This document shows positions 129-54,407 of a DNA stretch of 64,000 bases, in pieces (position 1 is the stretch's first letter; each line of letters opens with the position of its first letter). The stretch comes from Candidatus Staskawiczbacteria bacterium. GTDB lineage: Bacteria > Patescibacteriota > Minisyncoccia > Minisyncoccales > Staskawiczbacteraceae. The position numbers and the translations under genes were made by a program. The notes under the pieces were generated by a model. That model searched no databases. It was not told where the DNA came from and saw nothing but the letters and a program-made list of their open reading frames with translations. The stretch covers positions 8,819 through 72,818 of the forward strand of contig CAIMWV010000027.1 of assembly GCA_903845295.1 (NCBI GenBank), read 5' to 3'.

Positions 129-1016
129 ATGGGAACCAAGAACGAGTCCAGACTGCTCCAGAATATGACCATGGCACAGCTCGAGGCGGAATTTGACAGG
201 GCAATGGCCGAAGCCTCTTTACCAAGAGTGAACACTTGCATCCACGCTGCGGTCAAGGCCGTGGATAATGAATCGCGGATTCGCGATGCGGAGACCGTTG
301 TAGCCAGCCTCCAATTCTTAATGGGCACTTACCGCCGCATAAGCACGCGGTTCGGCAACAGCGACCCGGAAGCGACCAAGAAACTGTTCCGCCAGATACG
401 GGTGATAATCATTAAGAATTACACCGGCGATTCTATCGCCCCAATGTGGCTGACCGTCCCCGTGCCAAGAGAGTCTATGATTAGCAGAAGAGACAAGTTT
501 ATCACAGCCTTTTTTGCCGAATACGGGTGTGTGGACCTGGATTCAAGAGACCTGGCCGGCTTTGAGGAATATCTGCGGAACCTGTGGCAGGAAAGGGAAA
601 AAAGCAAAGTCACTGGCCATGCGCCAGTTGAGCTGATAAAAACAACGATAAGCGCCGGCGCGTTCGGCTTGCTGACGCATTTCCTGGTTTTCGAGGCTAT
701 CCCGTACATTTTCAATGAGCTTCTTGCACAAAACCTTGCACTTGCTCGGCGTCATACAGCGAGGGCTGCGCTAACATTCGAGTTGATCAAGCCAATGCCT
801 CTGGCGCTACATCCGATAATCATCGAACCGGTAGATAAAGAGAAAATCGAGTTGCTCTGTGCTACTGTCCTCCGACTGGAAGGAGGGTGTAATCCCCACC
901 CGAGTGATGAGGTTTTTAAGGGCGCTCGTGCCTTGCTCGAGCTTCTCGGCCAATACACGCTGCGCGATTGGGAATTAGGACAGGCGTCAACCGCAGTTAC
1001 GCATTCAGGGCAGTAA
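129..1016 (+). CDS. hypothetical protein (GC-rich module)
   Basis: 295-aa track ORF; SD-like aggaaaggg upstream; own hairpin+T-run terminator at 1031-1058; no motif I recognise. Confidence 0.5.
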   Translation: MGTKNESRLLQNMTMAQLEAEFDRAMAEASLPRVNTCIHAAVKAVDNESRIRDAETVVASLQFLMGTYRRISTRFGNSDPEATKKLFRQIRVIIIKNYTGDSIAPMWLTVPVPRESMISRRDKFITAFFAEYGCVDLDSRDLAGFEEYLRNLWQEREKSKVTGHAPVELIKTTISAGAFGLLTHFLVFEAIPYIFNELLAQNLALARRHTARAALTFELIKPMPLALHPIIIEPVDKEKIELLCATVLRLEGGCNPHPSDEVFKGARALLELLGQYTLRDWELGQASTAVTHSGQ

Positions 1017-1030
1017 CAAGCCAGCAACAG

Positions 1031-1058
1031 GCTCCAGAGCAATTTCTGGAGCTTTTTT
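1031..1058 (+). terminator. intrinsic terminator
   Basis: gctccag-N8-ctggagc stem followed by tttttt. Confidence 0.6.
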
Positions 1059-1066
1059 GTTAGGTC

Positions 1067-1094
1067 TTGACTAATTTTAAATTTATAGTAGAAT
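1067..1094 (+). promoter_or_regulatory. sigma70-like promoter
   Basis: TTGACT-16 nt-TAGAAT inside an AT-rich spacer between two GC-rich ORFs. Confidence 0.5.
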
Positions 1095-1166
1095 ATAGGC
1101 ATTGTCAGGACAATGGGTTCTGGCAGTGTTAGCAGTGGTTTTTTACCATTTTGGAGGGGTTCTTCC

Positions 1167-2450
1167 ATGTTCCGAGCTATTGCAGTGATCCTGTCGTTTG
1201 TGCTTTCTGGCGCCATCTTGGCTCAAGAAGCCGAATCGCGCGCAGGAGGCGGCGGCTGGACGACGTTTACGGATCCGTCGGGAGTGTTGTCAATCAGCAT
1301 GGACAACTCGGTCAGGGAAGACTCCTGGCAGATGCTCCAGATTCAGTCCACCGAGGATCTGGGACTGGGTGGCATTTCATTGTGTAACGACCAGGCGGTT
1401 TGGTCCGCCCTGCAGATCTACGTTGGGCCGTGGAGTCAGACAGTCGATTTCCAGATGCCCGTCGGCGTAAGCGGGCCTGGATTCTACTTCCAGCTGTCAA
1501 CAGCCTCGGTAGGCGTAAGGACTGCAGCTTTTGAAATCAAACCGCAGCCTACAATTACTGACTTCTGGCCGCAAACGGCGGCCTCTGGTCAGGAAGTGAC
1601 CGTGTTCGGATATGGGTTCGACGCCTTCAACTGCGCCAACCTGTACGCCCAGGACGCCAGCAGTTACTATTACACGGGCGACATTCCAGCAACAATGTGG
1701 GATGATGGCACGATTCATTTTACTATGCCGCAGTCCGTGTTTGTCAGAAGCCAAACGAACGGTGCCCTGACCGGGCAGGTCCCGTTGGAAAGCCTTAAGG
1801 AAGTCTCACTACAGATGTACGCGGGCTCCGATGGTTGGTCATCGAATACGGTCAATATCAAGATCGTGTCCACCAGCCTGAACATATCGATGTATCAAAA
1901 TGCGGACGGCAGCAACATCTTCACCATGGGGCAAGATATCCTGCAGTTCGTGGTCGCCGGCGAAAACTTCGGCAACGCCTCCGTGAACCTGGTGAAAACC
2001 CAGGGTACGAAGTCAACTGTTCCGATTTGCACAATCGCCGGCGCGTATCAAAACTTCGAGCAGAGCAGCTGGAGCATCCCGACGGACATCGCGGCCGGCA
2101 CATATGTGCTGTCCATGGCCTTCGGAGATTCTGTTGTGACCACACCGGAGTTTTCCATCGTCGCTCCTTACGTGCCGCCGGAAATCGTGTATGTTCCGGT
2201 TCCGACCACGCCGACTTCATCTCCGTCAGAAGTTCACGACGTGACTGTGCAAATCAACAACAACCTGACTGGATTCTCAATTCGCAAAAGTGGAAAGAGA
2301 ATGGTTACATTCTTTAGTAAGGTCAAGGCTGGGACCGAGAACAACAAACGGCCGCAATATGTGTTGCCGGATGTCGAGATGATTCCGTATGTCGCTCCTC
2401 CGATAGTGAAGAACACTACCGTGGGAACGACTGTGGAATTCCAGTTCTAA
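1167..2450 (+). CDS. secreted protein with IPT/TIG-like Ig-fold repeats (GC-rich)
   Basis: Start moved to M19 of track ORF 1113..2450 (ggagggg SD upstream); signal peptide MFRAIAVILSFVLSGAILAQ; ITDFWPQTAASGQEVTVFGYGF resembles IPT/TIG pattern. Confidence 0.55.
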   Translation: MFRAIAVILSFVLSGAILAQEAESRAGGGGWTTFTDPSGVLSISMDNSVREDSWQMLQIQSTEDLGLGGISLCNDQAVWSALQIYVGPWSQTVDFQMPVGVSGPGFYFQLSTASVGVRTAAFEIKPQPTITDFWPQTAASGQEVTVFGYGFDAFNCANLYAQDASSYYYTGDIPATMWDDGTIHFTMPQSVFVRSQTNGALTGQVPLESLKEVSLQMYAGSDGWSSNTVNIKIVSTSLNISMYQNADGSNIFTMGQDILQFVVAGENFGNASVNLVKTQGTKSTVPICTIAGAYQNFEQSSWSIPTDIAAGTYVLSMAFGDSVVTTPEFSIVAPYVPPEIVYVPVPTTPTSSPSEVHDVTVQINNNLTGFSIRKSGKRMVTFFSKVKAGTENNKRPQYVLPDVEMIPYVAPPIVKNTTVGTTVEFQF

Positions 2451-2485
2451 TAGAAACAAGTAGGTGAGTTCATATTGAACTTGCA

Positions 2486-2515
2486 AAAGCCCCACATGTG
2501 TATAGGGGCTTTTAT
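2486..2515 (+). terminator. intrinsic terminator
   Basis: aaagcccc-N11-ggggcttt stem then T-rich tail. Confidence 0.55.
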
Positions 2516-2546
2516 ATTGCAATTTTTCTTGAAAAAATAATTGGTA

Positions 2547-2650
2547 TTGACCCTTCACCATAACAGTTGGGTTTTTATTTAAAAACGGATAAGCTTATAA
2601 TTTTTTATATTTACTCAATAAATAATACTGCCGGAATGGTGAAGGGTTGA
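2547..2650 (+). repeat. ~105-bp inverted-repeat element, copy A (MITE-like)
   Basis: Terminal arms ttgacccttcaccat / atggtgaagggttga (12 bp perfect); about 80% identical by eye to the reverse complement of 52834-52938. Confidence 0.75.
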
Positions 2651-2674
2651 CATAGTTTTTAATCGGAGTAATAT
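2647..2674 (+). promoter_or_regulatory. sigma70-like promoter formed by right end of element A
   Basis: TTGACA-16 nt-TAATAT; the -35 lies inside the element arm. Confidence 0.55.
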
Positions 2675-2703
2675 TAGAAAAAATATCCAAAAGTTGTAAA
2701 ATT

Positions 2704-2799
2704 ATGTTTGCAGTTATTAAGTATAAACCTAAGGAAAAATTTTACCAGAAAAACAAACAAGTGTTCACAGAAGTAGAAATTACTATGGTCTCTGGCTAA
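2704..2799 (+). CDS. possible 31-aa leader/small ORF (MFAVIKYKPKEKFYQKNKQVFTEVEITMVSG)
   Basis: ATG..TAA read by eye between promoter 2647-2674 and hairpin 2794-2833; no SD; AT-rich. Confidence 0.15.
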   Translation: MFAVIKYKPKEKFYQKNKQVFTEVEITMVSG

Positions 2800-2804
2800 C
2801 AATA

Positions 2805-2827
2805 GCCCCCGTTTTCGGGGGTTTTTG
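2805..2827 (+). terminator. intrinsic terminator / possible attenuator upstream of 2879..4138
   Basis: cccccg-tttt-cggggg stem plus ttttt; enclosed in outer pairing ggctaacaa/ttgttagcc (2794-2833). Confidence 0.6.
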
Positions 2828-2878
2828 TTAGCCAGAGAGTGCGTGGCTCTTTGGCAATTTAAGGTGAGGAGGTGTGGC

Positions 2879-4138
2879 ATGAAGGAGCCGATTGTTAACA
2901 CAGAAGGGGACCCGCCGTACCTGCAGGGCAAGAAGATGGTCGGGCCCTACGAGCGGCTGTTCTGGGATGCAGTGAAGAAAGAGAAGGAGCTGGTGGAGGA
3001 ATTCAATAAGAGGCACAAGATAAAGGACCCGTACGTGGGCATAGATGCCGCACACTTGCATCTTTGCCGGGCTTTTACTTTGGATACGAAGTATCTTGCG
3101 CACATCGAGACTTCGCCCATGGAAGCAGCCAAATTACCGTTGTCTGCCAAGCAGGACATGGTGGGCGATCTGCACCGTGGCGTGGCCTATACCGAAGAAA
3201 GTTTGACAGAACGGATGGCTTTTGCCGCAGAAATGCTGATTTTCTTTGGGGCGAGAAGGGCCTCAACGTGCATTGACGCAACTCCAGATATCGGGTTCCG
3301 CGCAATGCACGTGGCAATCAAGCTGAAAAAGAAGCTTGCCAAAGAGAAGAGGTTGAATTTGGCCATCGGTCCGACCCCCATTTTCGGACTTAGGGAAGAC
3401 CGCTGGGATGTGTTTGCCGAGGCGGCTCGCTTGCCTGAAGTCGATTTTCTTGCCGGCCTTCCTGAAAAAGACATGGTTGCTGATTTGAACAGAAAAGACG
3501 GCAGGATTGGCTTCCAGCGGCACATCAGGAAGGTGATGGATCTGGCCTGCGAAGTCGGCAAGGAAGTCCAGTTTCATCTTGACCAGATGAACATTGAACC
3601 CGAACGCGGAACAGAATTGCTGCTTGAAGCGTTGGAAGGATATGTTGAACAGCCGAAAGTTCCGAACCACAATCCCAAAGATCCGGTGACCTGGGTAATC
3701 CATATGATTTCGCCGTCATGTTACGATGAGCAGCGTTTTCGCAGGCTTGTTGACGGCCTTCTCAAACACAATGTCGGCGTGATTGTCTGTCCGACGGCGG
3801 GGCTATCCATGCGCCAGCACGCGGCAATGAAAACCCGCACCCACAACTGCATGGCCAGGGTCTTGGAACTTTGCGTGATGCGCGTGCCCGTCAAAATCGG
3901 GCCAGATAATATGGGCGATGCCTTTGTCCCGCAAACAGACGGCAATATGTTCGATGAAATTAAGCTGCTCGGCTACGCAATCAGGCATGCACAGACATCA
4001 TTCTATGCAAAACTCGCCATGGGGATTCCGCTCAATAATATTGACAGAGGGATAGCGGCTAACGTGCTCCGTCAAGACTATGAAATAAATTCCAACGACG
4101 ATCCTTCCTGGAAGCCGCCCATCAAGCTGAAAAGCTGA
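2879..4138 (+). CDS. metal-dependent amidohydrolase, cytosine deaminase (CodA)-like (GC-rich)
   Basis: Start at M19 of track ORF (gaggagg SD). HLHLCRAF, VQFHLDQ, VIVCPTAGLSM and GPDNMGDAFVPQTDGNMFDE resemble CodA-family metal-binding and active-site blocks. Confidence 0.65.
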   Translation: MKEPIVNTEGDPPYLQGKKMVGPYERLFWDAVKKEKELVEEFNKRHKIKDPYVGIDAAHLHLCRAFTLDTKYLAHIETSPMEAAKLPLSAKQDMVGDLHRGVAYTEESLTERMAFAAEMLIFFGARRASTCIDATPDIGFRAMHVAIKLKKKLAKEKRLNLAIGPTPIFGLREDRWDVFAEAARLPEVDFLAGLPEKDMVADLNRKDGRIGFQRHIRKVMDLACEVGKEVQFHLDQMNIEPERGTELLLEALEGYVEQPKVPNHNPKDPVTWVIHMISPSCYDEQRFRRLVDGLLKHNVGVIVCPTAGLSMRQHAAMKTRTHNCMARVLELCVMRVPVKIGPDNMGDAFVPQTDGNMFDEIKLLGYAIRHAQTSFYAKLAMGIPLNNIDRGIAANVLRQDYEINSNDDPSWKPPIKLKS

Positions 4139-6148: not shown

Positions 6149-7048
6149 ATGGAATCTTCGGATGTCTTGATGGAAACCGACATACCCAGTCTCTCAGAAC
6201 CCCATCGCGGCAAAGCCCGCGATAATTACGATCTTGGTGACGGCAGGATGGCCATTGTCACCACTGACCGCCTCAGCGCCTTTGACGTGATAATGAATCA
6301 AGGAATTCCCGATAAGGGGAAAGTGCTGAATCAGCTCACGAAATTCTGGCTGACAAGGCCAAACCAAGTCGTTCCCAATCATTTACTGGGCACTGATCTG
6401 GCTCTCCTGCCGCCAGCATTTCAGAGGCCGGAGCTTGAAGGCCGGACAATGATTGTCCGCAAAGTGAAGAAGGTTTTTCCAGTCGAATGTGTTGTACGGG
6501 GATATATAATGGGCTCCGGCTGGGAAAGCTATCAAGCCGACGGCACGGTTTGCGGAATCAAGCTGCCTCCCGGCCTCAAGCTTTGCGACAAGTTGGAGAA
6601 AGCCATATTCACTCCGACAACCAAGGAAGAAAAAGGCCACGACAAGCCGATTACTTTCGAGCAGATGGTCGGCATAGTAGGGAAAGATGCTGCCGAAGCA
6701 ATGCGCTATGCCAGCATCAGGTTGTACGAAGAGACGCATGATTTCGCTTTGGAGCGCGGCATTATCATTGCCGACACGAAGTTCGAATTCGGGCTTCTTT
6801 TCGACGTGATCATGTTGATTGACGAGGTTTTGACCCCGGATTCCAGCCGGTTTTGGCCGAAAGAAAGCTGGGTGCCGGGCAAAAATCCGCCGAGTTTGGA
6901 TAAGCAGCCAGTCCGCGACTGGCTCAAGGCTACCGGATGGAACAAACAGCCGCCGCCGCCGGATTTGCCTCCCGAACTGGTCGCTTCTACTCAGAAAAAG
7001 TATTTGAGGATTTACGAGTTGCTTACCGGCCAATCCTTGGCTGAATAA
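6149..7048 (+). CDS. purC: phosphoribosylaminoimidazole-succinocarboxamide (SAICAR) synthase (GC-rich)
   Basis: GKARDNYD and IVTTDRLSAFDV signature blocks; IIIADTKFEFG; aaggaggg SD. Confidence 0.9.
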   Translation: MESSDVLMETDIPSLSEPHRGKARDNYDLGDGRMAIVTTDRLSAFDVIMNQGIPDKGKVLNQLTKFWLTRPNQVVPNHLLGTDLALLPPAFQRPELEGRTMIVRKVKKVFPVECVVRGYIMGSGWESYQADGTVCGIKLPPGLKLCDKLEKAIFTPTTKEEKGHDKPITFEQMVGIVGKDAAEAMRYASIRLYEETHDFALERGIIIADTKFEFGLLFDVIMLIDEVLTPDSSRFWPKESWVPGKNPPSLDKQPVRDWLKATGWNKQPPPPDLPPELVASTQKKYLRIYELLTGQSLAE

Positions 7049-7273
7049 GCGGCTCGGAAATTCTCGAATCTATGTCCTTATCACGTGCAAGCGGGGTGGG
7101 GACTTTTTGTTTGCAAAATTTAACATTTTTGTTAGTATCTATTTAGCATTGCTCTTTGAAAATCTCTGAAGGGATTTTAGAGCAACTGTTCAACCCGCGA
7201 GTTTTACGGGTGTGGGCGTCGCCTGGGGCGACATTCGACATTTTGAGGGGTCAAAAGCCCCGGGAGAGGGAAG

Positions 7274-8932
7274 ATGGGAAAAGCGGAAAAGACAGCCGAA
7301 TTAAGGACACTGGTGTTGGAAAATCCAGGCAAAATTCCTGTCAATATGGCTTTACCGGGCAATCCCCGGTACCAGCCCAAGTCACTCGTTGACTACTTCG
7401 GGTACGACAAGCTTTACCTTGGGCCGATACATGTCATCCTAGCAACGCTCAGGGTTCTGGGCAGGATTGCGGCGATACCGGCCCAGGACGCGGATTTGCT
7501 GGATGGCGCCTTGACCGCCAAGCTTCTCACGATCCGGACCGGCTTGGTTGACCAAGTCGAGCGAGGGCTGACCAACCATGATATCCGCGCGCTGGTGCTG
7601 ATAATGCAGTGGATGTCTCCGATGCAGATCGGGCGGTGGTGGCACAAGCCGAACACGAGCTACGATGATTTGGAATCCGGACGTGCCGTCCATTTCATCC
7701 AGGCGCATGAGAAGGTGGTGAGGAAACAGACCAACAAGGTCATCGAACATTTGGTCAAACTGGCCTACGATAACGCTGATGTCCGCTGCATTCTCAGGAC
7801 TCATCTGCAGGATGCACTGCCAGGCACCATGGGGTTTTGGTTCTCATGCATACTGGGCCAACTGCTTGAGAGCATTTCCGCCGCCAATGCTTCGGCAGGC
7901 GCTATCGTCGCTAAAATTTCCGGCGCAACCGGGAATAAGAATGCCCAGATCCATTTGGGCATCGAAGCTCGTTGCCAGGCAAAGCTCAAAATGAGCTTTG
8001 AAGAAGCTGTTCTGCAAGAACTCGGACAAAGTGCCGGGCTTAGCCGTCCGCTCAGGCCGGCGCTGGTCAGCAAGCAGATTCTTTTGCCCGGACCGCTTGA
8101 AAGATATCTTTCTGATATTGTCGCGTGTTCCGCGGCCTTGGCCCAGTTGGGCGACGACGGCAGGATACTCATGAGCAGCCGGATCGGAGAGTTCAGGGAA
8201 CCATTTGATCCGGGCCAGGCCGGCTCTTCGACAATGCTCAAAGTGAATCCATTCAGGCTGGAAAATCTTGTGGCAATGTGGAGGAAGAACGTCGGGGAGC
8301 TTGTGAAGGTGCAGATCAATGCCTTAAGTAACCTTCAGCGCGATCTGACAGGTAGCGCTGTCACCCGCGATTATCCCGCAATAGTGGTCAACCTCGCGGA
8401 ACAACTGCAGACGCTACTGCGCGCCAAAGATGACAAACCGCCCTTCATTGCCCGGCTGACGGTTGACAAAGACAGCTGCATGCGCAATCTGCTGGAGGCG
8501 GGCGATACTATATTGGCTGAGCCCCTTCAGATCGCCATCGAGATGGCAGGATATCCTCTTGACGGCTATGAACTGGTGAACCAGAAGGCGCGGTATATGA
8601 CCACAAAGGGAATCTCCCTTGGCGAAGCTGTGTGCCGTTTACTGGACGCAACTGCAAGACGCGATGGAGAGGAGGCTGCCATAGCCTTGCTAGAATCCGG
8701 CAAATTGAAGGACATGGCAATGCCTCTAGTCAAAAGGCCTGTTACGCTTGTGGAAGCCACGCAGAAGCTTTTGGTAGAGGAAGACCAATCCGCAGTTTGG
8801 GAAGCCATTCCGGCAGAGACGCGAGAGATGTTCAGACACCCGGAGAACTACATCGGCGACGCGCCGGCACAAGCAAGAAAAGTGGCAAAGCGGGCTGAGC
8901 AGTATCTCGCCGCAGAACCTGCGAGTAAGTAA
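7274..8932 (+). CDS. purB: adenylosuccinate lyase-like (fumarate lyase superfamily), long form (GC-rich)
   Basis: TNHDIRALV, RTHLQDALPGTMGF, GATGN and GSSTMLKVNPFRLEN resemble PurB/lyase-1 signatures. 552 aa is about 100 aa longer than typical PurB. Confidence 0.7.
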   Translation: MGKAEKTAELRTLVLENPGKIPVNMALPGNPRYQPKSLVDYFGYDKLYLGPIHVILATLRVLGRIAAIPAQDADLLDGALTAKLLTIRTGLVDQVERGLTNHDIRALVLIMQWMSPMQIGRWWHKPNTSYDDLESGRAVHFIQAHEKVVRKQTNKVIEHLVKLAYDNADVRCILRTHLQDALPGTMGFWFSCILGQLLESISAANASAGAIVAKISGATGNKNAQIHLGIEARCQAKLKMSFEEAVLQELGQSAGLSRPLRPALVSKQILLPGPLERYLSDIVACSAALAQLGDDGRILMSSRIGEFREPFDPGQAGSSTMLKVNPFRLENLVAMWRKNVGELVKVQINALSNLQRDLTGSAVTRDYPAIVVNLAEQLQTLLRAKDDKPPFIARLTVDKDSCMRNLLEAGDTILAEPLQIAIEMAGYPLDGYELVNQKARYMTTKGISLGEAVCRLLDATARRDGEEAAIALLESGKLKDMAMPLVKRPVTLVEATQKLLVEEDQSAVWEAIPAETREMFRHPENYIGDAPAQARKVAKRAEQYLAAEPASK

Positions 8933-11317: not shown

Positions 11318-11403
11318 TGAACTTAATTGAAGTTGAGAATTTGCAGCCTTTTATGTATTTTTTAAATGAAGGGTGCGAGCACGGACAAGCTATTAATTTT
11401 TAA
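11317..11403 (+). pseudogene. ghost 5' end of the ABC ATPase gene (MNLIEVENLQ...)
   Basis: ATG overlaps the adaptor stop (TAATG). The first 9 codons are homologous to the real start at 11424 (MPLIEVENLK), mostly synonymous differences, then run into inserted DNA. Confidence 0.6.
11344..11380 (+). repeat. CAGCCTTTTAT..ATGAAGGGTGCGAGC element, copy 1
   Basis: Near-identical to 42333-42369; box AAGGGTGCGAG also at 23261-23275 (minus). Confidence 0.7.
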
Positions 11404-21524: not shown

Positions 21525-21670
21525 TTCACCCCCACACCAAACGAGTTACGATTTTTTTCAAATTGTGTGAGAGTGAATACAACAGAAAAATAATAATTAA
21601 ATACAAACGGGGTAATAATTTTGAGAAAAAAAATCTTTGAATAATAAACTCGTTATGGTGTGGGGGTGAA
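21525..21670 (+). promoter_or_regulatory. long inverted repeat occluding murC SD/start
   Basis: ttcacccccacaccaaacgagtt (21525-21547) pairs with aactcgttatggtgtgggggtgaa (21647-21670): 23 bp with a 1-nt bulge. The right arm holds the gggggtg SD and GTG start. Confidence 0.6.
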
Positions 21671-27668: not shown

Positions 27669-28730
27669 ATGACAATACTCACCTTTAATGTTATCAAGGT
27701 TTTCATTCTGGCGGCTGTTGCTTCGGCTATAGCTATTTTTTGGTGTCCGCTGCTGACGCATTTTTTGTACAAACATAAATTCTGGAAAAAAAGCGCGAGG
27801 CAGAAAGCAATTTCTGGCGAAGATGCAGTTGTTTTTAATCATCTACACAAGGAAAAGGAAGTCGGCACGCCCCGCATGGGAGGTCTTCTTGTTTGGCTCA
27901 CAGTTATTTTTATTATTTTTTTGTTTTTTATATTATCTTTAATCTTTCCAAATACATGGCTGGCTAATTTTAATTTTTTATCAAGGGGCCAGACATGGCT
28001 GCCGCTTTTTACATTAATTGTTGCATCATTTGTAGGATTAATAGATGATATTTTAGTTGTTAAGGGCTGGGGGAAATATATTGGCGGGGGAATCTCTTTT
28101 AAAAAGCGGGCATTGCTTGTAATTTTAATCGGCCTCATCGGGAGCATCTGGTTTTACCAAAAGTTAGGGTGGGATACGGTTTATATTCCTTTTTTTGGCG
28201 ACTTGTCCATTGGATTGTGGTATATTCCTTTATTTATTTTAGTGACCGTTGCCTGCTGGTCCGGCGGCATAATAGACGGCTTAGACGGCCTTGCCGGAGG
28301 AACCTTTGCATCGATTTTCGGTGCGTTCACTATAATAGCTTTTTCTTTAGGCAAAATTGATCTGGCGGCCTTCTGCGCAGTTGTTGCAGGAACCTTGTTT
28401 GCTTTTTTATGGTTTAATATTCCTCCTGCCAGATTTTATATGGGGGAGACGGGCATACTTGGATTGACAACCGTGCTGTCTGTCATAGCTTTTTTAACTG
28501 ATTCTGTTTATGTTTTGCCCGTAATCGCCGGTCTTTTAGTGATTGAAGTTTTGTCTGTAATAATCCAGCTTTTATCCAAAAAATTCAGGAAGAAAAAAGT
28601 ATTCCTTTCAACGCCGATTCATCACCATTTCGAGGCTATTGGCTGGCCCTCATACAAAGTAACAATGCGAGCCTGGATTATAGGTATAGTATTGGCCTTC
28701 GTAGGCGTTGCGATAAGGCTGCTGAGATAA
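27669..28730 (+). CDS. mraY: phospho-N-acetylmuramoyl-pentapeptide transferase
   Basis: GLIDDILVVKG, DGLDGLAGG, polytopic membrane protein. Confidence 0.9.
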   Translation: MTILTFNVIKVFILAAVASAIAIFWCPLLTHFLYKHKFWKKSARQKAISGEDAVVFNHLHKEKEVGTPRMGGLLVWLTVIFIIFLFFILSLIFPNTWLANFNFLSRGQTWLPLFTLIVASFVGLIDDILVVKGWGKYIGGGISFKKRALLVILIGLIGSIWFYQKLGWDTVYIPFFGDLSIGLWYIPLFILVTVACWSGGIIDGLDGLAGGTFASIFGAFTIIAFSLGKIDLAAFCAVVAGTLFAFLWFNIPPARFYMGETGILGLTTVLSVIAFLTDSVYVLPVIAGLLVIEVLSVIIQLLSKKFRKKKVFLSTPIHHHFEAIGWPSYKVTMRAWIIGIVLAFVGVAIRLLR

Positions 28731-28780: not shown

Positions 28781-29656
28781 ATGCCTGAATATATGCAAAG
28801 AAAAACTTTATGTCAAAGAGGGTTACTATGTTTAAAAAACCATGGTTTTTTTTGGTGTGCTAAACAACGTGTAGGTTTATTAAAGGAAAAATTAGGAAAC
28901 TTATATAAATATGGAACATTTGATATATTTAATAATAGAATTTGTATCGAAACTATTACTGCTTGTAACAGAAAATGTTATTATTGTCCTAATTCAATAT
29001 ACGATAGAGGACTAATACAAAATCTTAAAAAAATGGACACAGATTTATTTTATAAAATCATAGATGAATTAGCTGAGCTAAAATGGAATGGTGAAGTTGC
29101 TCCCATTCGCTATGGCGAACCGTTATTAGACGATCGCATGCCGGTTTTGATTAAATATACACGGGATAAATTACCAAATTCTAGGATTTACCTTTATACA
29201 AATGGAGATTTATTAACCGTTGATTTGTATAAAAAATTGATACTGGCAGGCGTTAACGTTTTTGCTGTAACCAAGCACCCCGGTGGCGAGCATGAAAATG
29301 TTGAAAAAGTCATTCTGTATCGTAGCTCATATGGTAATAACGGCGTTGAAGTACGCTACAACACTTTAACGAACATATTTAACCGAGGTGGCATAGTGGA
29401 AGTTAGTGAAGAAATTGACAAGACGGATGCTTGTAGAGACCAGCTACAGCAAGTTATTGTTGATTATGCAGGAAATATCGTATTTTGTTGCAATGATTAT
29501 TTTACATCTCTTAAACTCGGAAATATAAGGACCGAAAAGTTAATAGACATATGGAAAAAGCCATTTTATAAACAATTGAGAAAAGATATTAAAAATGGTA
29601 TTTATAAATTAGATATATGTAAGAAATGTAAAGTAGGCCGACCTTTATCTCTGTAA
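28781..29656 (+). CDS. radical SAM protein with C-terminal Cys-rich (SPASM/twitch-like) region
   Basis: CNRKCYYCPN (CxxxCxxC); C-terminal FCCNDY...CKKCKVG. Confidence 0.7.
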   Translation: MPEYMQRKTLCQRGLLCLKNHGFFWCAKQRVGLLKEKLGNLYKYGTFDIFNNRICIETITACNRKCYYCPNSIYDRGLIQNLKKMDTDLFYKIIDELAELKWNGEVAPIRYGEPLLDDRMPVLIKYTRDKLPNSRIYLYTNGDLLTVDLYKKLILAGVNVFAVTKHPGGEHENVEKVILYRSSYGNNGVEVRYNTLTNIFNRGGIVEVSEEIDKTDACRDQLQQVIVDYAGNIVFCCNDYFTSLKLGNIRTEKLIDIWKKPFYKQLRKDIKNGIYKLDICKKCKVGRPLSL

Positions 29657-29706
29657 AAGATGGGGGTTGCAGATTAAAGAGTTGATATAAAAAGAGCTTA
29701 TTTGGG

Positions 29707-29760
29707 ATTATCGGCATTGTTTTGGCCTTCGTAGGCGTTGCGATAAGGCTGCTGAGATAA
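29707..29760 (+). pseudogene. orphan duplicate of mraY 3' end
   Basis: Encodes IIGIVLAFVGVAIRLLR*. The last 39 nt (29722-29760) are identical to 28692-28730; the 15 nt before differ only synonymously. Confidence 0.8.
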
Positions 29761-29803: not shown

Positions 29804-29874
29804 GGGCCCATAGTAAACCGGTATTACGCCTCCATGGCATGGAGGAAGACGGGGTTCAATTCCCCGTGGGTCCA
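29804..29874 (+). tRNA. tRNA-Ala (anticodon GGC)
   Basis: Cloverleaf folded by hand: acceptor GGGCCCA/TGGGTCC with G3:U70, anticodon loop aTGGCat, T-arm cgggg-TTCAATT-ccccg; no encoded CCA. Confidence 0.85.
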
Positions 29875-31454: not shown

Positions 31455-33065
31455 TCACTCGGCAACTTCTGCCAAGCGAAGCAATCTCTCCTTCCTGAGT
31501 TCATGCGCCAAGTCTTTCGGAAAGCGCAGCTTCTCGGTGGAATATATATAAAGGAAAAATGGCTGAGCGGTTCGGGTTATCGCCCTGATCTCTTCAGCCT
31601 CTTTTGGCCGAGCTTCTGGAAAAGCCATTGCCCTCCCGTTTTCCCAAACCATGAAATCAGACAACCCGGAACTTTTATTAAGTTTGGACTCATCTAGGTG
31701 TATCATGATATCCGAATCCTTCAGCAGTTCTCTTTCCCTGTCATGGGCTTCCTTGATCGTGCCGAATCTTTCAATCCTCGGATTCAGGTCATTGCTGACC
31801 GAGTTAAGAAAGAAATACTGCCCGATTACTTTATCCATTATTTCCATGAGGCGTTGGTCGCCGATGGCAAGCAGCTCTTTGAGCGTTATTATCTTTTTAT
31901 GGAAAAGATATTTTGCCAAAACTTTTATAAGGCCGTCTTCTAAAAAGCGGCTGGCCGGATTGTAGTAAAGCGTACGGAACATCAAAGCCCGGAGCTTCAG
32001 AAAATCAGCCAGGCGATCGGCATCGTCAATCACCAGCATACTGTCGCGTATATGCGCGCAGTCCCAGATACTGCAGATAAGCGGATTAACCTTTAGCATT
32101 TCCCGTATCCGCCTGAATTCGTAGCAGAACGGTATGTCGTCGCGCTCGGAATTCTGGTTCAGAAGATACTCAACGTCGCGCGCTGTGTAAGAGACCTTGT
32201 CGGCAAGATCTAAAATCCTGCCCATTGCTCCTTTTTGCATGATTACGGAACAAAGAGCTTCCTGGTTAATGCCGTATTTCCGCCGGAATTCCTTGAACCC
32301 GGCGGTAGAGAATTTCTCATCATAATGGCGGTCTTCGTCAAACAGTTCCGGATCAACGGCTTTCATTGTATCCCCGCCGGCCGGAGTCCTCCAATCGTGG
32401 CTGAATGCGGCGGTTTTCAGGGTAAGCAGTTCCTGCCCGGACAAGCCGTTATTCAGGCCGATCAATGTGGCCAAAACCCCGACATCTATGCTGTGCAGAA
32501 ACCTTGTGTGGCAAAAAGTGCTCGCATAGGTCGGAAGTTCTTTTTGCCTGATTACCGGATCGTGCAGGAAGCCAAGCTGTTTTATTCCGTTAAGCCGCCA
32601 AAGGTCAAATGTAGTGCAAACGTCATGGATAAATCCGCCGTCTTTGGTGAGATAGCCGATTCCGGTAAGTTCAAAACCCGGAACAATCAGATCTGTTTCA
32701 ATCGGCGCATCCTGGATCCAGTACTCCCAACGCACTGGAACCTTCTGGCGCGCTGAAAGTTTGTTCATCCAGCCAGGCTCCTGGCCGGAGTGAGAATTGC
32801 GGTATTCTGAATACATGACCCGCAAAAAATGCATAGACGCCATTTCTAATGCCGGCATCATGAAATCAGGCAGCTCAATATGGTGGTTTTTGCACATCTG
32901 CAAAAACCAATCCTGTTTACAAATCAGGGCGCTCTTTGGCCCGACCTTCTGCGAACGGGGCCAATCCGGCATGATAACCAAGTCTTCAATCACATGCTCT
33001 TGCGGGCCTGTGATTATTTCTTGCGCATTGTATTTCACAAGCCCTCCTTTCCTCCCGTGGCTCAC
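31455..33065 (-). CDS. HD-domain phosphohydrolase (dNTPase/SAMHD1-like) (GC-rich)
   Basis: HTRFLHSIDVG and AAFSHDWRTPAGGD resemble the H..HD metal motifs; GTG start. Confidence 0.65.
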   Translation of the reverse strand: MSHGRKGGLVKYNAQEIITGPQEHVIEDLVIMPDWPRSQKVGPKSALICKQDWFLQMCKNHHIELPDFMMPALEMASMHFLRVMYSEYRNSHSGQEPGWMNKLSARQKVPVRWEYWIQDAPIETDLIVPGFELTGIGYLTKDGGFIHDVCTTFDLWRLNGIKQLGFLHDPVIRQKELPTYASTFCHTRFLHSIDVGVLATLIGLNNGLSGQELLTLKTAAFSHDWRTPAGGDTMKAVDPELFDEDRHYDEKFSTAGFKEFRRKYGINQEALCSVIMQKGAMGRILDLADKVSYTARDVEYLLNQNSERDDIPFCYEFRRIREMLKVNPLICSIWDCAHIRDSMLVIDDADRLADFLKLRALMFRTLYYNPASRFLEDGLIKVLAKYLFHKKIITLKELLAIGDQRLMEIMDKVIGQYFFLNSVSNDLNPRIERFGTIKEAHDRERELLKDSDIMIHLDESKLNKSSGLSDFMVWENGRAMAFPEARPKEAEEIRAITRTAQPFFLYIYSTEKLRFPKDLAHELRKERLLRLAEVAE

Positions 33066-41630: not shown

Positions 41631-42122
41631 ATGAAATACCTTTGTTGGGCGATTGCGATCTGGCTGGGCCTGCTAGGAATGGTGGGCCTGGTGTTCGCGG
41701 AGGAGAAGGGCCAGACGGCGATCTGTATCGCGCCACTTGACCAGTACCTCATGCGGGCCGAGGACACGGTTGGCGAAGGCAACAGGGTGTTCATCCGCAC
41801 CTACGAGGTAACGGAAGATGGCGGCAAATACGCCATCCAAGTTGCCACGAGGGAGGGTTCGGTAACATCCTACATCAAGGCAGAGGCCTTCTGCGGCAAC
41901 TTGCGGGTGCTGGAACTCCATCTTCGGAAGTCTCCGGATGCCTACCAAGAGTGCAAGAAGGTTGGGGAATTGCTGAAACTGGCAAAGGCCTCAAACCTCA
42001 AGAAGGTCGTGGTATACAAGCGCGACAACAAAGGCGCTTGGCTAACGAAGGAATTCGTGGAGGACCCGACTGCTCCCCTTGGTGGTGACATCGAGAGGGA
42101 GGCACAAAAAGCCCTGCGATAG
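41631..42122 (+). CDS. secreted hypothetical protein (GC-rich module)
   Basis: Signal peptide MKYLCWAIAIWLGLLGMVGLVFA; aaaggag SD. Confidence 0.55.
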   Translation: MKYLCWAIAIWLGLLGMVGLVFAEEKGQTAICIAPLDQYLMRAEDTVGEGNRVFIRTYEVTEDGGKYAIQVATREGSVTSYIKAEAFCGNLRVLELHLRKSPDAYQECKKVGELLKLAKASNLKKVVVYKRDNKGAWLTKEFVEDPTAPLGGDIEREAQKALR

Positions 42123-42307: not shown

Positions 42308-42358
42308 ATGAATAAAAAGCTTATATTTTATACAGCCTTTTATATATTTTATATATGA
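42308..42358 (+). pseudogene. ghost 5' end of membrane-protein gene (MNKKLIFYT...)
   Basis: Homologous to the real start at 42419 (MNKKIIFYI), then runs into the CAGCCTTTTAT element. Confidence 0.55.
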
Positions 42359-42369
42359 AGGGTGCAAGC
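42333..42369 (+). repeat. CAGCCTTTTAT..ATGAAGGGTGCAAGC element, copy 2
   Basis: Aligns with 11344-11380. Confidence 0.7.
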
Positions 42370-42418
42370 AGTCTTCGTTTATTTATTATGACAGGGCGCG
42401 GAGCAAAATAAAATATTT

Positions 42419-42914: not shown

Positions 42915-43889
42915 ATGGAAAAATCATCAAAGCCAATAAAAGAACATCTGCAAGACTTTTTAGATTATTGTGAAGTTGAAAAAGGTTTGCGCGACAATAC
43001 TCAAGAGAATTATAAAAATTATCTGCAGAAATTTTTTAATTGGTTAGATCAGGCCAAATTAAGCTCTCTGCTCCCCCATCAATTGACCTCAGACCACATT
43101 TGGGCCTATAGATTATACCTTTCCAGGACCCCAAGCCCGGCTACTGGCAAATTGCTGTCAAAAGGCACCCAGAACTACTATTTAATCGCTTTAAGGGCCT
43201 TTTTAGGCTATTTTGTGGCTAAAGACGTACTTTCACTGCCTCCGGACAAAATATCGCTCTCAAAGCCAGATAGAGGCTCAAAAAGCATAAAATTCCTTAG
43301 TTTAGACCAGATTGGCAAGCTTTTAGCCTCTATTGAGCCAAAAGACGATATAAGCACCCGCGACAGGGCCATTTTGGAGGCTTTTTTCTCAACCGGCCTT
43401 AGAATTGCCGAACTTGTATCCTTAAATCTTGAACAGTTTAATAGCTTAAAAGATAAAAAAGATATGGAGCTGGGCGTTATCGGCAAGGGCGGCAAACCTC
43501 GCGTGGTTTATTTTTCAGAACGAGCTTTAAACTATATCAGAAAATATCTTGAAATACGAAACGATGTTAAGCATGCCAATCAAAAAGCCCTATTTATAAA
43601 CTTTAGGGATAAAAAAGATGATGCAGATGCCAGGCTCACACCAAGATCTATTGAAAGAATGGTCAAAAAATATGCCCTGCTTTCAGGCGTTCCGATTTTT
43701 ACTACCCCACATACCTTACGCCACTCATATGCAACAGATTTATTAAACCAAGGAGTTGACCTGCGCAGCATCCAAGAATTTCTGGGACACAGTAACATTG
43801 CCACAACGCAAATTTATACGCACGTAACCAACAAACGTTTAAGGGATATACATCATCAGTTTCATAGTGACCCTGATAAAAATAATTAA
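42915..43889 (+). CDS. tyrosine site-specific recombinase (XerC/D-like)
   Basis: N-terminal SAM-like core-binding domain; STGLRIAEL (Arg I), HTLRHSYAT (H-x-x-R), LGHSNIATTQIYTHV (catalytic Tyr). Confidence 0.85.
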   Translation: MEKSSKPIKEHLQDFLDYCEVEKGLRDNTQENYKNYLQKFFNWLDQAKLSSLLPHQLTSDHIWAYRLYLSRTPSPATGKLLSKGTQNYYLIALRAFLGYFVAKDVLSLPPDKISLSKPDRGSKSIKFLSLDQIGKLLASIEPKDDISTRDRAILEAFFSTGLRIAELVSLNLEQFNSLKDKKDMELGVIGKGGKPRVVYFSERALNYIRKYLEIRNDVKHANQKALFINFRDKKDDADARLTPRSIERMVKKYALLSGVPIFTTPHTLRHSYATDLLNQGVDLRSIQEFLGHSNIATTQIYTHVTNKRLRDIHHQFHSDPDKNN

Positions 43890-44000: not shown

Positions 44001-45113
44001 CTAGGTGCCAGAGGCGTTTTCGTCGTAGATCGAGGGTGTCTGGTTCAATCTATCTTCGATATTGACTCCGAAGAACTCGGCGATGGGCTGGAAAATCTCG
44101 GGACTGTTTTTCTGAACTTCCCGAAGGCCCTCCAAGACCAGAAGAACGCCTTGCGCTGTCATTTTTCCCAGCGGCTCACGGCAGGGGCCGGACGGCATGC
44201 CCAAGATCCGCATCATAGTTTTGATGCCCACGGGGTTGCGGAACTTGTCTTTGACCTTGTAGATCTTTGTTTCAGCTCCATTTCCGGGAATGCTGACTTC
44301 GCGTTCGGCAGAAACAGTCACCAGCCTGAACAACGGCGCGAGTTTGGTATGCATCGCGGCCGCAGTTTCAGATTCTCTGTGCAGCAGGTGCTGGCACATC
44401 TTTTGCACCGCAGCCGGAGCGATGTTGGCGATCACCGAGATGACGCCGCAAGCTTGTATGCTGGTTTCGTTCATCATGTAGTAGGTCATGTCGTCATCGC
44501 CGGAAAAAATCTGGAAATCCGGCGGGGTTATACTGCGCGTCTCCCGGAATTTATCCATATTTCCGGTTGCCTGCTTCACGGCGCAGATATTGGGATAGCG
44601 CCGCGCCAAAACTCCAAGGTCCGCGCAAGAAAGCTCGCAGCCCGTGCGCCCCGGAATTATGTAAGGCACAATCGGCAAATTGGGATGCAGCGCGGCAATC
44701 GGCCCGTAGTAATGGCGGGCGATCTCAAAGGAAGACGGCCCGTTGTAGTAAGGATCAACCATCAACGCTCCGTCGCAACCAGAAGCCTCGGCCAAAGCAA
44801 CGTAGGATTTGGCTTCTTTGGTGGAATTGGACCCGCAGCCGGCCAGGATGCCCAACTTTTCCTGGCTGTTGGAGTTAATTTCATGGACCAGTCTGGCTGA
44901 CTCAACAATCACCAGGTGATGCCCGCGCTCATTCAGTGTCGAGGTTTCACCGGTTGTTCCCATGGGAACAATTCCGGACACATTGTTTGAAGCGAAGAAA
45001 CTGACCAGCCTGGCGATGCCGGGCCGGTCTATTTTCCCATCCTTCAAAAAAGGCGTTACCATGGCTACCCATGCGCCTGTGGCCAACCGTAACTTCTTTT
45101 CCTGCGTTTCCAT
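44001..45113 (-). CDS. DapA/NAL-family class I aldolase (dihydrodipicolinate synthase-like) with C-terminal extension (GC-rich module)
   Basis: GIVPMGTTGETSTL and ICAVKQATGN (Schiff-base Lys block); 370 aa versus about 290 typical; taggag SD. Confidence 0.75.
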   Translation of the reverse strand: METQEKKLRLATGAWVAMVTPFLKDGKIDRPGIARLVSFFASNNVSGIVPMGTTGETSTLNERGHHLVIVESARLVHEINSNSQEKLGILAGCGSNSTKEAKSYVALAEASGCDGALMVDPYYNGPSSFEIARHYYGPIAALHPNLPIVPYIIPGRTGCELSCADLGVLARRYPNICAVKQATGNMDKFRETRSITPPDFQIFSGDDDMTYYMMNETSIQACGVISVIANIAPAAVQKMCQHLLHRESETAAAMHTKLAPLFRLVTVSAEREVSIPGNGAETKIYKVKDKFRNPVGIKTMMRILGMPSGPCREPLGKMTAQGVLLVLEGLREVQKNSPEIFQPIAEFFGVNIEDRLNQTPSIYDENASGT

Positions 45114-46459: not shown

Positions 46460-47212
46460 TTATAAACAAGCGAGTGCCAAAAATCTTCCTTCGTGCCCGC
46501 AATTTTCAGCCCGGCGGTGCGAAGGAAAGATATATTCTTCGGATCCGGGAAGCCTCGAACAGCATGTGCAGATTTTGTCATCTGCAAAAATATTGCCCTC
46601 GGCTAATCCATATTCCTGAAGCTGTTTCCGCGCTTCTTCGCGTAGGTCCAATTTGTCATAACAGCATGGTCCGATGCCCGGGCCTATTGCCGCCACAATT
46701 CGGCTGGTAGATATTCCATGCTGGAGCATGTGTACTGCCTCCACTCCAATATGGATTATCTCAATCTCCAGGCTTTTCTTACTGACGTGCAGAAGGCAAC
46801 AAAACTGATAGTTGGGATCTGCCGATCCTAAGATTACCGGCAAACAATCTGCCGGGCAGAGCGTCAGTGGAATATTGATCATGGTCGTCGCTAAGCCATC
46901 GCATTTAAACGTTCCTCCGCCGGCAACGATATCTGTGATGTTTTTCTCGGTGACAACCTTGATCATGTTACCCACCCCGGGAATCATGTGAACCCGGTTT
47001 TTAGCTGAAATCCCGACCAGCTCGAAAAAAGCGGCTACGTTTCTATCAGCCGCAGCCTCATCTCCCGCCTCTTTAGCCCATCTGCGAGACATGTTCCCAA
47101 ACTGCTCGCCAGCCAAAACGGTTGAAAAAACGTTGAAAACAGGAAATTCTGAAAAAGACATCACCTGCTGCCCATGGTCATATTCTGCAAACGCCAAAGA
47201 TTTACTCTGCAT
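46460..47212 (-). CDS. YfiH/PgeF (DUF152, laccase-domain) family protein (GC-rich module)
   Basis: LTLCPADCLPVIL, CLLHVSKKSL and IGPGIGPCCY match the ADC.P / H / GP.I..C.Y pattern of the family; aaggag SD. Confidence 0.7.
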   Translation of the reverse strand: MQSKSLAFAEYDHGQQVMSFSEFPVFNVFSTVLAGEQFGNMSRRWAKEAGDEAAADRNVAAFFELVGISAKNRVHMIPGVGNMIKVVTEKNITDIVAGGGTFKCDGLATTMINIPLTLCPADCLPVILGSADPNYQFCCLLHVSKKSLEIEIIHIGVEAVHMLQHGISTSRIVAAIGPGIGPCCYDKLDLREEARKQLQEYGLAEGNIFADDKICTCCSRLPGSEEYIFPSHRRAENCGHEGRFLALACL

Positions 47213-47279
47213 AAATGCGCACTCCTTATTGCTTGATGGAAGGAACTAAATTCAGCGAGTTCGCCCGCTAAACATATAT

Positions 47280-47307
47280 ATTATATATGTTTATTACCTT
47301 TTGTCAA
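47280..47307 (-). promoter_or_regulatory. consensus sigma70 promoter of YfiH-like module
   Basis: Minus strand reads TTGACA-16 nt-TATAAT. Confidence 0.6.
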
Positions 47308-47346
47308 CGCTTAGTGTCTGTTGATTTGTTAGGAGGTATAATTAAA

Positions 47347-47407
47347 CTGTCGCACAATGGGTCGCACAATCGACAACAGTGTTGACACACTATTGTCGCC
47401 TAATCAA
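47347..47407 (-). repeat. cluster of boundary-motif copies (tandem CTGTCGCACAAT GGGTCGCACAAT, palindrome CGACAACAGTG-ttgaca-CACTATTGTCG, variant TATTGTCGCCTAATCAA)
   Basis: Read directly; four motif-related units within 61 nt. Confidence 0.75.
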
Positions 47408-47531: not shown

Positions 47532-48026
47532 ATGGCGAAAGAAAATTTTAATATTGTGACTTTGGTAAACAATGACGGATGCTTTGATTTGCAATTCAGG
47601 AAAGACACGAGGCACGAAAGGACCAACTCCCCCACTTACTACAGATGGAAGGCGCAATTTATAGTTACTTCCCCGAAAGATAATGTTAAAATTTTAGAAA
47701 AAATTAAAAATGAGATGGGCTGCGGCGAAGTAACCGTTTCAAAAGACCAGGCAAGGTTCTCAGTACAGAAAATCGGCGATATTGCGGAAAATATCGTGCC
47801 GTTCTTCAGAAAAAATTCTCTGTCGGATAAAAAGAAAAAAGATTTTGAGCTTTGGGCAAAAGGAGTCGAAGTAATCCAGAGGAATAAAGGAAAATATTTG
47901 GCCAGCTGGAAAAAGAATGACATATGCACCCTCATAGAAATCCACAAGTCATCAGCAAAATACAAAACGCATCCAAGAACTCCTAAGTGGTTAGACCTAG
48001 CAAAATCATTATCGAGAACAGCATAG
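47532..48026 (+). CDS. free-standing single-motif LAGLIDADG homing endonuclease
   Basis: LVNNDGCF (LAGLIDADG-like), IVPFFRKNSLSDKKKKDFELWAKGVEVI typical of the family; 164 aa. Confidence 0.7.
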   Translation: MAKENFNIVTLVNNDGCFDLQFRKDTRHERTNSPTYYRWKAQFIVTSPKDNVKILEKIKNEMGCGEVTVSKDQARFSVQKIGDIAENIVPFFRKNSLSDKKKKDFELWAKGVEVIQRNKGKYLASWKKNDICTLIEIHKSSAKYKTHPRTPKWLDLAKSLSRTA

Positions 48027-52808: not shown

Positions 52809-52837
52809 ATAATAACAAAATTATTTTTGTAAATCAA
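52809..52837 (-). promoter_or_regulatory. promoter for ctpA formed by end of element B
   Basis: Minus strand reads TTGATT-17 nt-TATTAT. Confidence 0.5.
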
Positions 52838-52938: not shown

Positions 52939-52981
52939 TGCCAGTTAGTATCTATATTTTTAAAAATCGTCAAAATTTTGC

Positions 52982-54320: not shown

Positions 54321-54407
54321 GACATCCTCCTCTCGCAAATCCCAAGGGACTCGAAGCCCCCTTCTGTCCATCTCGGGGGGCTCACAATGGCCCACCTCAC
54401 TACCATA

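Follow-up and report, generated by a model that had tools for sequence, protein, structure and literature searches.

Within a 64-kb stretch of DNA from Candidatus Staskawiczbacteria (contig CAIMWV010000027.1; the window, below, means the whole of these 64,000 nucleotides), three short inverted repeats each lie directly against the −35 box of a promoter, and the locus raises the question of what places a noncoding repeat of about a hundred bases again and again at the same point of a promoter. The genomes of Patescibacteria are tiny, streamlined, and usually called poor in mobile DNA. The original prediction, made from the letters of the window, was of a nonautonomous mobile promoter element belonging to this lineage and resembling the Correia elements of Neisseria. 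Our analyses uphold a dispersed terminal inverted repeat (TIR) element without coding capacity but not a mobile promoter: the three copies, here called A, B, and C, are probably gene-less, nonautonomous members of a Patescibacteria-wide family of TIR mobile elements that targets the −35 hexamer, the likely autonomous members being longer units with a GIY-YIG nuclease gene.

Three Copies in the Window

Copy A (2547–2650, + strand) and the reverse complement of copy B (52834–52938, − strand) align over their full length, as predicted, at 83–86% identity, and the pair makes up the two longest inverted-repeat pairs of the window (69 nt at 83% and 49 nt at 86%). The homology spans 2538–2650 and ends with the TTGA at 2650; the termini form the expected 12-bp perfect inverted repeat, ACCCTTCACCAT / ATGGTGAAGGGT. 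Copy C (54433–54538, − strand) is indeed a diverged third copy of the same length and plan, and it groups with A and B on interior similarity; its arms are worn (TTGAGCCTTCATT / GGTGAAGGCTTGA) and its conservation is limited to the arms and some interior blocks. The exact word GGTGAAGG occurs six times in the window, five times as an arm of A, B, or C (the left arm of C being degenerate) and a sixth time within a gene at 53753.

Each copy leads into a promoter, and the hexamers originally read there hold: one end always supplies the TTGA of a −35 box at the correct distance from a −10 box. In A (2538–2652, of which 2538–2650 is the repeat unit in common with B), the left TTGAC and arm occupy 2547–2559, the right arm and TTGA 2638–2650, and the −35 box TTGACA 2647–2652; after a 16-nt spacer, the −10 box TAATAT (2669–2674) is host sequence outside the repeat. 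B (52832–52947, − strand) lies upstream of ctpA (51615–52796), homologues of which are annotated as Candidatus Staskawiczbacteria, with the left TTGAC and arm at 52938–52926, the right arm and TTGA at 52846–52834, and a promoter TTGATT-17-TATTAT at 52837–52832 and 52809–52814. The decaying copy C (54431–54538, − strand) lies upstream of a GC-rich gene for a secreted protein (53049–54320/54395); its left arm is at 54538–54526 and its right arm at 54445–54433, the −35 box TTGACA (54436–54431) being separated by 17 nt from a −10 box TATCAT with a TG extension (54408–54413). As far as can be read from the sequence, every copy has the intrinsic terminator of its upstream neighbor on one side and the promoter of the next gene on the other. 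The opposite end, previously described only as reading ...GGTCAAT, has to be reinterpreted, as on the element strand the word of the promoter end, TTGAC, recurs there without a change of direction.

The promoter adjoining A had been assigned to an amidohydrolase gene. The promoter stands, but the identity of the gene is weak, with no Pfam match and only subthreshold NCBIfam matches (PRK06886, cytosine deaminase), and other features come first: a 31-codon open reading frame (ORF; 2704–2799) is followed by a long terminator-like hairpin with a GC inner stem and a T run, and the amidohydrolase-like ORF starts beyond them with the ATG at 2879. The whole region 2704–2840 could be a leader or attenuator, and the promoter of A may not simply drive the amidohydrolase-like ORF.

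A Family with Covarying Arms

The copies of the window belong to a family with the unit TTGA-[C/G]CCTTCACC-NN, a variable AT-rich interior, and NN-GGTGAAGG[G/C]-TTGA(C), 90–118 bp in total, with no ORF in the interior of the short copies. Pattern scans gave about 100 copies, and all true copies with a taxonomic label came from metagenome-assembled genomes (MAGs) of Patescibacteria. A scan with the exact pattern in one genome per species found 20 matches, all 20 in Patescibacteria MAGs labeled Staskawiczbacteria, Saccharibacteria, or unclassified, at no more than four per genome; a metagenome scan with the left outer bases left free found 94. As the same termini occur across Patescibacteria classes, the element is not peculiar to the source lineage, and the restriction to it in the original prediction has to be dropped. 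Viral contigs gave no match to the element and thus no sign of a phage vector. A literature search for the repeats, or for a GIY-YIG gene together with such arms, returned only primers and unrelated papers and no description, and the family appears to be undescribed so far.

Across the family, the inverted repeat is perfect over 11–17 bp. Among about 85 unique copies, the core arms [C/G]CCTTCACC and GGTGAAGG[G/C] vary only at the C/G position, which is always complementary between the arms. The two bases beyond the core are Watson–Crick paired in 82–83 of the 85, and this with seven different dinucleotides (TT/AA in 32 copies, AT/AT in 19, CT/AG in 13, AA/TT in 9, CA/TG in 4, and others). In an alignment of 23 sequences, 99.1% of the cells pair and none of 500 shuffles reaches the covariation score.

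One alternative is a structured RNA: the arms would close a long hairpin in a transcript and act as a cis-regulatory or processing signal, such as an RNase III site, in the way known from Correia elements. On the promoter-direction strand, the outer TTGA/TTGA could pair by two G–U wobbles and the left arm CAUU of C would still pair; folding z-scores range from −4 to −7, and folding is weakly biased toward the + strand (mean −1.75 kcal/mol, 41 versus 30 copies, p=0.01). The strand bias, however, tracks the G+T content (rho −0.75), and the mismatches beside the core are A:C in four cases and G:U in none. Furthermore, the copies of the window are not expected to lie within a transcript because of their position between an upstream terminator and a downstream promoter, and the left arm is upstream of any start from the left TTGAC. 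The interior also occurs inverted, and the left outer word is TTGAC far more often than TCAAC, which would pair better (70 to 3). No Rfam family matches: at the gathering score, the window and 18 recovered loci gave nothing relevant, the sole match in the window being a tRNA, and by E-value the best hits over B and C were chance-level microRNA models. We consider a structured RNA a highly improbable explanation.

In the 94 metagenome matches, for which the search pattern left this word free, the left outer word is TTGAC in 70, TTGAG in 2, and TCAAC in 3; as it is mostly TTGAC, it repeats the right-hand TTGAC directly and does not mirror it. TTGA(C) is found on both ends in about 95% of the true copies, and the stretch putatively duplicated could be TG, TTGA, or TTGAC. 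Tandem copies in three recovered loci (L042, L063, and L066) have one TTGAC in common between neighbors and, read directly from these junctions, the termini joined end to end give GGTGAAGGGT-TG-ACCCTTCACC, a perfect 10-bp palindrome around TG within a joined end that is invariant over 22 bp. Most copies also have a G-rich left flank, with 37–48% G at positions −4 to −1 against 21–29% at other promoter-like sites, and this flank looks like the worn right arms of older copies.

Relative to the outer TTGAC, the interior may lie either way round, with a bias of about 80:20; between two copies of one genome, L012 and L020, the interiors score 48 as reverse complements and 3.5 in forward alignment. 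Such a pattern could be left by an invertible DNA switch, in which a recombinase flips the interior of about 80 bp and brings an interior −10 box into or out of register with the fixed left TTGAC. The left TTGAC is indeed followed at 17 nt by a −10-like hexamer in 35% of cases against 12% for control TTGAC words, and the window contains a gene for a XerC/D-type tyrosine recombinase (42915–43889). That recombinase, however, looks like an ordinary XerC/D and adjoins no copy, lying more than 9 kb from any, and no locus was seen in two orientations even though at least 10 were recovered from several samples. With a segment very short for synapsis, and with the tandem arrays, empty sites, and GIY-YIG-bearing members described below left unexplained, we give an invertible switch very little credence.

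Element lengths fall in classes about 11 bp apart (90–93, 100–108, and 113–118 bp), and the classes track subfamilies by descent. We considered DNA looping with helical phasing, but the coincidence of length classes and subfamilies makes the spacing uninformative.

Placement on the −35 Box of Strong Promoters

A −10 box, defined as a TAnnnT hexamer with at least four of six matches to TATAAT, follows the right TTGAC at 16–18 nt in 74 of 84 distinct copies (88%); the same is true of 12% of all other TTGAC words and of 33% of the intergenic TTGAC words. The homology between copies ends exactly at TTGA, and the −10 box is never within the repeat but always in host DNA. The promoters concerned are often the strongest ones, such as those of 16S rRNA, tuf, rpoB, the S10 operon, and CIRCE (controlling inverted repeat of chaperone expression)/groES. 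The element precedes 16S rRNA in two lineages and heat-shock promoters with CIRCE in at least four, groES being confirmed in one; the 53 downstream ORFs include those for EF-Tu, RpoB, ribosomal proteins L3 and S12, GreA, NusA, SecE, sigma-70, and GroES, with recurrences in different lineages for EF-Tu, L3, and GreA (three each) and for RpoB, SecE, and sigma-70 (two each). Downstream of element promoters we also found tRNAs and a conserved unnamed hairpin RNA. Where transcription data are almost nil, the element marks real promoters.

The hairpin RNA, closed by a long stem and bearing a T tail, measures about 135 nt; it lies immediately 3' of an element-associated promoter and is divergent from ruvB. 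It was seen in several Patescibacteria (L021 6400–6535, L090, L068, L118, and L019 2070–2200 on the − strand), and it had no match in Rfam at an E-value threshold.

Such placement is open to a functional reading: the element might be a conserved cis-regulatory module, the arms of which bind a Patescibacteria-wide protein that activates or tunes the strongest housekeeping promoters, with selection maintaining the copies and gene conversion producing their similarity within a genome. The invariance of the arms across classes, the right arm always abutting the −35 box, the repeated hits on the same operons in different lineages, and lengths in classes about 11 bp apart would all agree with this. 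Recognition by a protein, however, leaves unexplained why the nonconserved positions beside the core are complementary and why the outer TTGAC is repeated directly rather than mirrored. Solo right arms at promoters are nearly absent in 750 kb of recovered loci, and the length classes follow subfamilies by descent.

Empty, Decayed, and Replaced Sites

The ctpA genes of relatives L024 (86% identical) and L027/L028 (82%) have the promoter TTGATT-17-TATTAT in place and no element, and the junction between B and these element-free promoters falls exactly at TTGA. Because the ctpA promoter is identical in relatives without it, the element preserves a promoter and does not bring one, and it is on this point that the mobile promoter of the original prediction fails. 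In the closer relative L023 (97%), a deletion between two TTTTTAnA words has removed the left half of B, and the orthologue of C has its left arm intact and several substitutions in the right arm; as the promoters of both B and C are intact despite the decay of the elements, pairing of the arms is dispensable for them. At a CIRCE promoter, L102 has one element, whereas the orthologous L065 has a stump of the left arm of that element, the bases CGGGG, and a different full element that abuts the same −35 box. The L019 orthologue of an L021 site has shrunk to a 30-nt hairpin that is now within the ruvB start.

Copies have also multiplied recently. Near-identical pairs are present at unrelated loci within one genome (L006/L015 and L007/L019, at about 95–99% identity), as are A and B, and the copy density is 3 in 64 kb here and at most 4 strict matches per MAG. 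TIRs on a short noncoding unit, dispersed copies, and presence or absence at the orthologous ctpA site are features of a miniature inverted-repeat transposable element, and presence/absence among relatives together with recent duplications within genomes argues for such behavior. Absence of further copies and identical positions in all relatives had been named at the outset as signs against mobility; instead, the additional copies and the empty ctpA sites favor it. A BLAST search with the flanks of all recovered loci found no clean empty site with both flanks, yielding orthologues in the same state, differences in copy number, and the mini-hairpin remnant of L019. The assemblies break at or beside B, and the element probably breaks the assemblies of Patescibacteria MAGs.

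For the cis-regulatory module, these sites are hard to accommodate: an orthologous ctpA promoter is present without the element, in L023, at 97% identity, the elements are decaying but the promoters are intact, and tandem arrays and two interior orientations fit poorly. We judge a regulatory module unlikely.

The genes next to the copies suggested one more possibility, namely that the elements are attC-like recombination sites bounding gene cassettes, which here would be the GC-rich genes that seem to have been acquired horizontally. One such gene is enclosed by B and C, which point the same way, A has a GC-rich gene on either side, the genes after elements are GC-rich in 28% of cases against an average of 9%, and the elements are imperfect palindromes of attC-like size. 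However, their ends, as read from the sequence, are TTGAC ... GTTGAC and misfit RYYYAAC/GTTRRRY, no integron integrase gene is adjacent, and the sole tyrosine recombinase (42915–43889) scores as XerC/D. Most of the GC-rich genes of the window are without an element, and most elements elsewhere precede ordinary housekeeping genes. Finally, the segment that varies relative to L023 starts within a gene and ends inside B, not at the element borders. With sequence, context, and the borders of the variable segment all against it, the cassette idea is largely refuted, and we regard it as scarcely credible.

Longer Members with a GIY-YIG Gene

A candidate for the mobilizing enzyme is found within the family itself. 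Members of about 300 bp, present in at least seven lineages, enclose a gene for an 81-aa GIY-YIG nuclease between the same arms. In L114, a 310-bp unit between S10 and the next promoter reads TTGAC-CCTTCACCCAAAT ... ATTTGGGTGAAGGG-TTGACA around an intact 81-codon ORF; in L042, a GIY-YIG unit is followed by three short copies in tandem; in L068, the gene is on the opposite strand and a short copy follows; and in L031, a GIY-YIG unit abuts a short copy upstream of 16S rRNA. Eight members, L114, L042, L068, L118 (protein P0138), L128 (P0133), L141 (P0127), L146 (P0141), and L134 (P0163), all have the layout TTGAC and arm, then arm and TTGAC(A), and then a −10 box. Looking up the protein first gave the same picture: five of seven homologues (P0138, P0133, P0163, P0127, and P0141) are bracketed by arms and have a −10 box downstream, and the remaining two lie in tRNA genes of which a 5' segment is duplicated. 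L128 and L141 represent one locus, at which the arm cores have covaried (CCTTCACC/GGTGAAGG versus TCTTCACT/AGTGAAGA).

The ORF matches Pfam PF01541 at 2e-14, and the nearest solved structure is that of the UPF0213 protein BH0048 (PDB 1ZG2, 7e-07). The ORFs are intact, and Y3, Y5, Y16, G18, R26, H30, and E50 are invariant in 11 sequences, so that the GIY...YIG motifs and the conserved Arg, His, and Glu of the superfamily are all found in the long members. A survey from 2006 placed stand-alone prokaryotic proteins of this type together with Slx1, as the GIY-YIG fold in its minimal form (PMC1564403). On the sequence evidence, the GIY-YIG units are the likely candidate for an autonomous partner of the short copies.

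Two other readings were rejected. A classical transposase in an autonomous element is not indicated: no arm pair in a scan of about 750 kb of loci bracketed a transposase gene, and the rve gene of L134 and the serine recombinase gene of L136 adjoin arms and do not lie inside them. Nor are the short copies internal-deletion derivatives of the recovered GIY-YIG members, since there is no subterminal similarity beyond about 25 nt. A search among the genes of the window found no transposase, only the Xer-like and LAGLIDADG genes.

Sister GIY-YIG genes are found inserted in tRNA genes, with 9–23 nt of the 5' end of the tRNA duplicated (L135 1405–1800, L148 1100–1520, and L046 1390–1680), and they are clearly mobile; the gene of L046 also has 19-bp perfect inverted repeats. 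In L066, L093, and L084, other inverted repeats of 13–16 bp surround a GIY-YIG gene, and more distant GIY-YIG genes bear other perfect inverted repeats of 13–19 bp.

Proposed Mechanism

The architecture and distribution of the family, its target word, its association with promoters, its empty and decayed sites, and its GIY-YIG members are direct observations; movement we infer, as a nuclease-driven transposition or homing that would be approximately neutral for expression. The element would insert at the word T-TG-AC, the −35 hexamer of sigma-70-type promoters, leaving the target word on either side of itself. With its right end it would rebuild GGG-TTGAC(A) as far from the host −10 box as before, and since the −35 box is thereby reconstituted at the original spacing, the downstream gene would keep its promoter. 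The regenerated TTGAC would be a preferred target for further insertion, and new copies may for this reason land beside old ones and give tandem arrays with one common TTGAC, while the older, promoter-distal copies decay through deletion and point mutation. Repeated landing and decay could thus keep the same strong promoters occupied for long times in distant lineages with no function required. The enzyme most likely to act in trans on the short copies would be the 81-aa minimal GIY-YIG (UPF0213/Slx1-like) nuclease.

Several points weigh against this account. Neither transposition nor an excision product nor activity of the nuclease has been observed. Invariance of the termini across classes, together with recurrence at the promoters of rRNA, tuf, rpoB, and groES, fits a regulatory site as well. 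A minority of copies has TCAAC on the left (the three of the scan and L006 1095–1196), which a strict target duplication does not predict, and since the genes upstream of ctpA differ at the empty sites, the target duplication cannot be checked on both flanks. As to the nuclease, a search of the 64-kb window found no GIY-YIG gene, and the 81-aa protein is without an obvious DNA-binding domain. Furthermore, we know of no insertion-sequence family with a GIY-YIG enzyme. Short copies and the recovered GIY-YIG members are alike only over termini of about 25 nt and have no subterminal similarity and, because only the termini are common, the nuclease could be cargo or a separate homing gene with a liking for these hairpins. 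Taken with these points, a mobile family targeting the −35 box is the explanation that we favor as probable.

A more far-reaching proposal, which we put forward tentatively and hold to be rather less than even in its chances, is that of a previously unrecognized class of mobile elements, in which an 81-aa Slx1/UPF0213-type GIY-YIG gene is enclosed in short perfect inverted repeats and the repeats of the window are its miniatures. Such a class would include ORF-less forms of about 30 nt (a hairpin) and about 100 nt, would home to the −35 hexamer or, in sister lineages, to the 5' ends of tRNAs and bring a replacement for the interrupted word, and would amount to a REPIN/RAYT-like partnership built on a different nuclease fold and persisting on the strongest promoters. 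Should the small GIY-YIG protein prove to move the elements, the few enzymes known to mobilize prokaryotic insertion elements would gain another nuclease fold and the widespread UPF0213 or "minimal Slx1" proteins a function, and the 22-bp joined end GGTGAAGGGT-TG-ACCCTTCACC would be a defined biochemical substrate. A repeat family that sits on the −35 box of the strongest promoters without disabling them is a new case of selfish DNA persisting in a compact genome.

Comparison with Known Systems

The likeness to the Correia elements (CREE/NEMIS) of Neisseria, noted from the start, is fitting as an analogy. These, too, are units of about 100–150 bp with TIRs, no ORF, and many intergenic copies; their ends contribute promoter boxes, and a hairpin is possible if they are transcribed. 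For neither family is a DDE transposase partner known, though here a GIY-YIG gene lies inside the long members. The termini are unrelated, however, those of the present family being CCCTTCACC/GGTGAAGGG, and the size classes differ; the Correia target is TA and the element itself makes the −35 and −10 boxes, whereas here the target is TTGAC, the −10 box is host DNA, and the empty site is already a promoter. The host range is a superphylum here and one genus for Correia. As termini, target, and host differ, the family is an analogue and not a member of the Correia family.

Conceptually, the REPIN–RAYT partnership is the closest known system. In both, short palindromic repeats are scattered between genes, inverted copies of them enclose a single small nuclease gene, sizes range from hairpins of about 30 nt (here in L134 and L019) to doublets, and the association with the host lineage is long-lived. 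The enzyme of REP/REPIN–RAYT is a Y1 HUH nuclease, however, and that of the present units a minimal GIY-YIG domain; here, there is no GTAG/CGTC tag, a single arm is not itself a hairpin, the placement on the −35 hexamer is strict, and the target word is found on both sides.

The catalytic domain is the same as in the free-standing GIY-YIG homing endonucleases (the seg genes of phage T4 and relatives of I-TevI) and the UPF0213/YhbQ/Slx1-like proteins. Unlike the present units, the known homing endonucleases have DNA-binding domains, no brackets of perfect TIRs, and no ORF-less miniatures; the UPF0213 proteins are, to our knowledge, not known as mobile. Head-to-tail tandems arising from insertion beside an existing end recall the end targeting of IS30, and an element that carries a copy of the functional word it interrupts, so that the host function survives, recalls the islands that target tRNA genes. 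Both differ from the present family in enzyme class, and here it is a 100-bp unit that restores the −35 box of a promoter.

Other Features of the Window

A further inverted-repeat element of about 144 bp lies at 21526–21669, with arms TCACCCCCACACC(AAACGAGTT) / (AACTCGTTAT)GGTGTGGGGGTGA that agree with the main family at 10 of 13 positions; its right arm overlaps the ribosome-binding site and the start of a murC-like ORF. Words like GGTGTGGGG(C)TTGAC are found left of main-family copies in L051, L072, L064, and L094, and the element at L021 6608–6716 looks like a hybrid. The window also has a free-standing LAGLIDADG endonuclease gene (47532–48026), and LAGLIDADG genes are at the matching place in the relatives L024 and L027.

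The window has a G+C content of 38% and contains eleven single-gene units of 47–57% G+C. GC-rich genes are at 129–4138, 6149–8932, 31455–33065, 41631–42122, 44001–45113, 46460–47212, and 53049–54395, and include purC, purB, and those for a DHDPS-family enzyme, a Cu-oxidase_4 protein, and secreted proteins. The GC-rich stretches start just past the −10 box and stop at the terminator, and their promoters look native; the genes themselves are likely to have been acquired horizontally. That at 53049–54395 has its 3' half replaced in a relative with 97–98% identical flanking genes. An intergenic word, ATTGTGCGACA(A), recurs at 5421, 25680, 41450, 42192, 45230, three times in 47250–47400, and, inverted, at 61517; at several of these places it adjoins GC-rich genes, and it may be an operator or another repeat.

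Finally, the window has two sets of direct repeats. One, of 56 nt at 93% identity (28675–28730 and 29705–29760), is the 3' end of a glycosyltransferase gene duplicated beyond a radical-SAM/SPASM gene of 32% GC (28781–29656) and before a tRNA (29804–29874), and the region looks like the insertion of a gene that carried a replacement gene end. The other is an intergenic repeat of 38 nt at 89% identity, CAGCCTTTTATATATTTTATATATGAAGGGTGCAAGCA, at 11344–11381 and 42333–42370.

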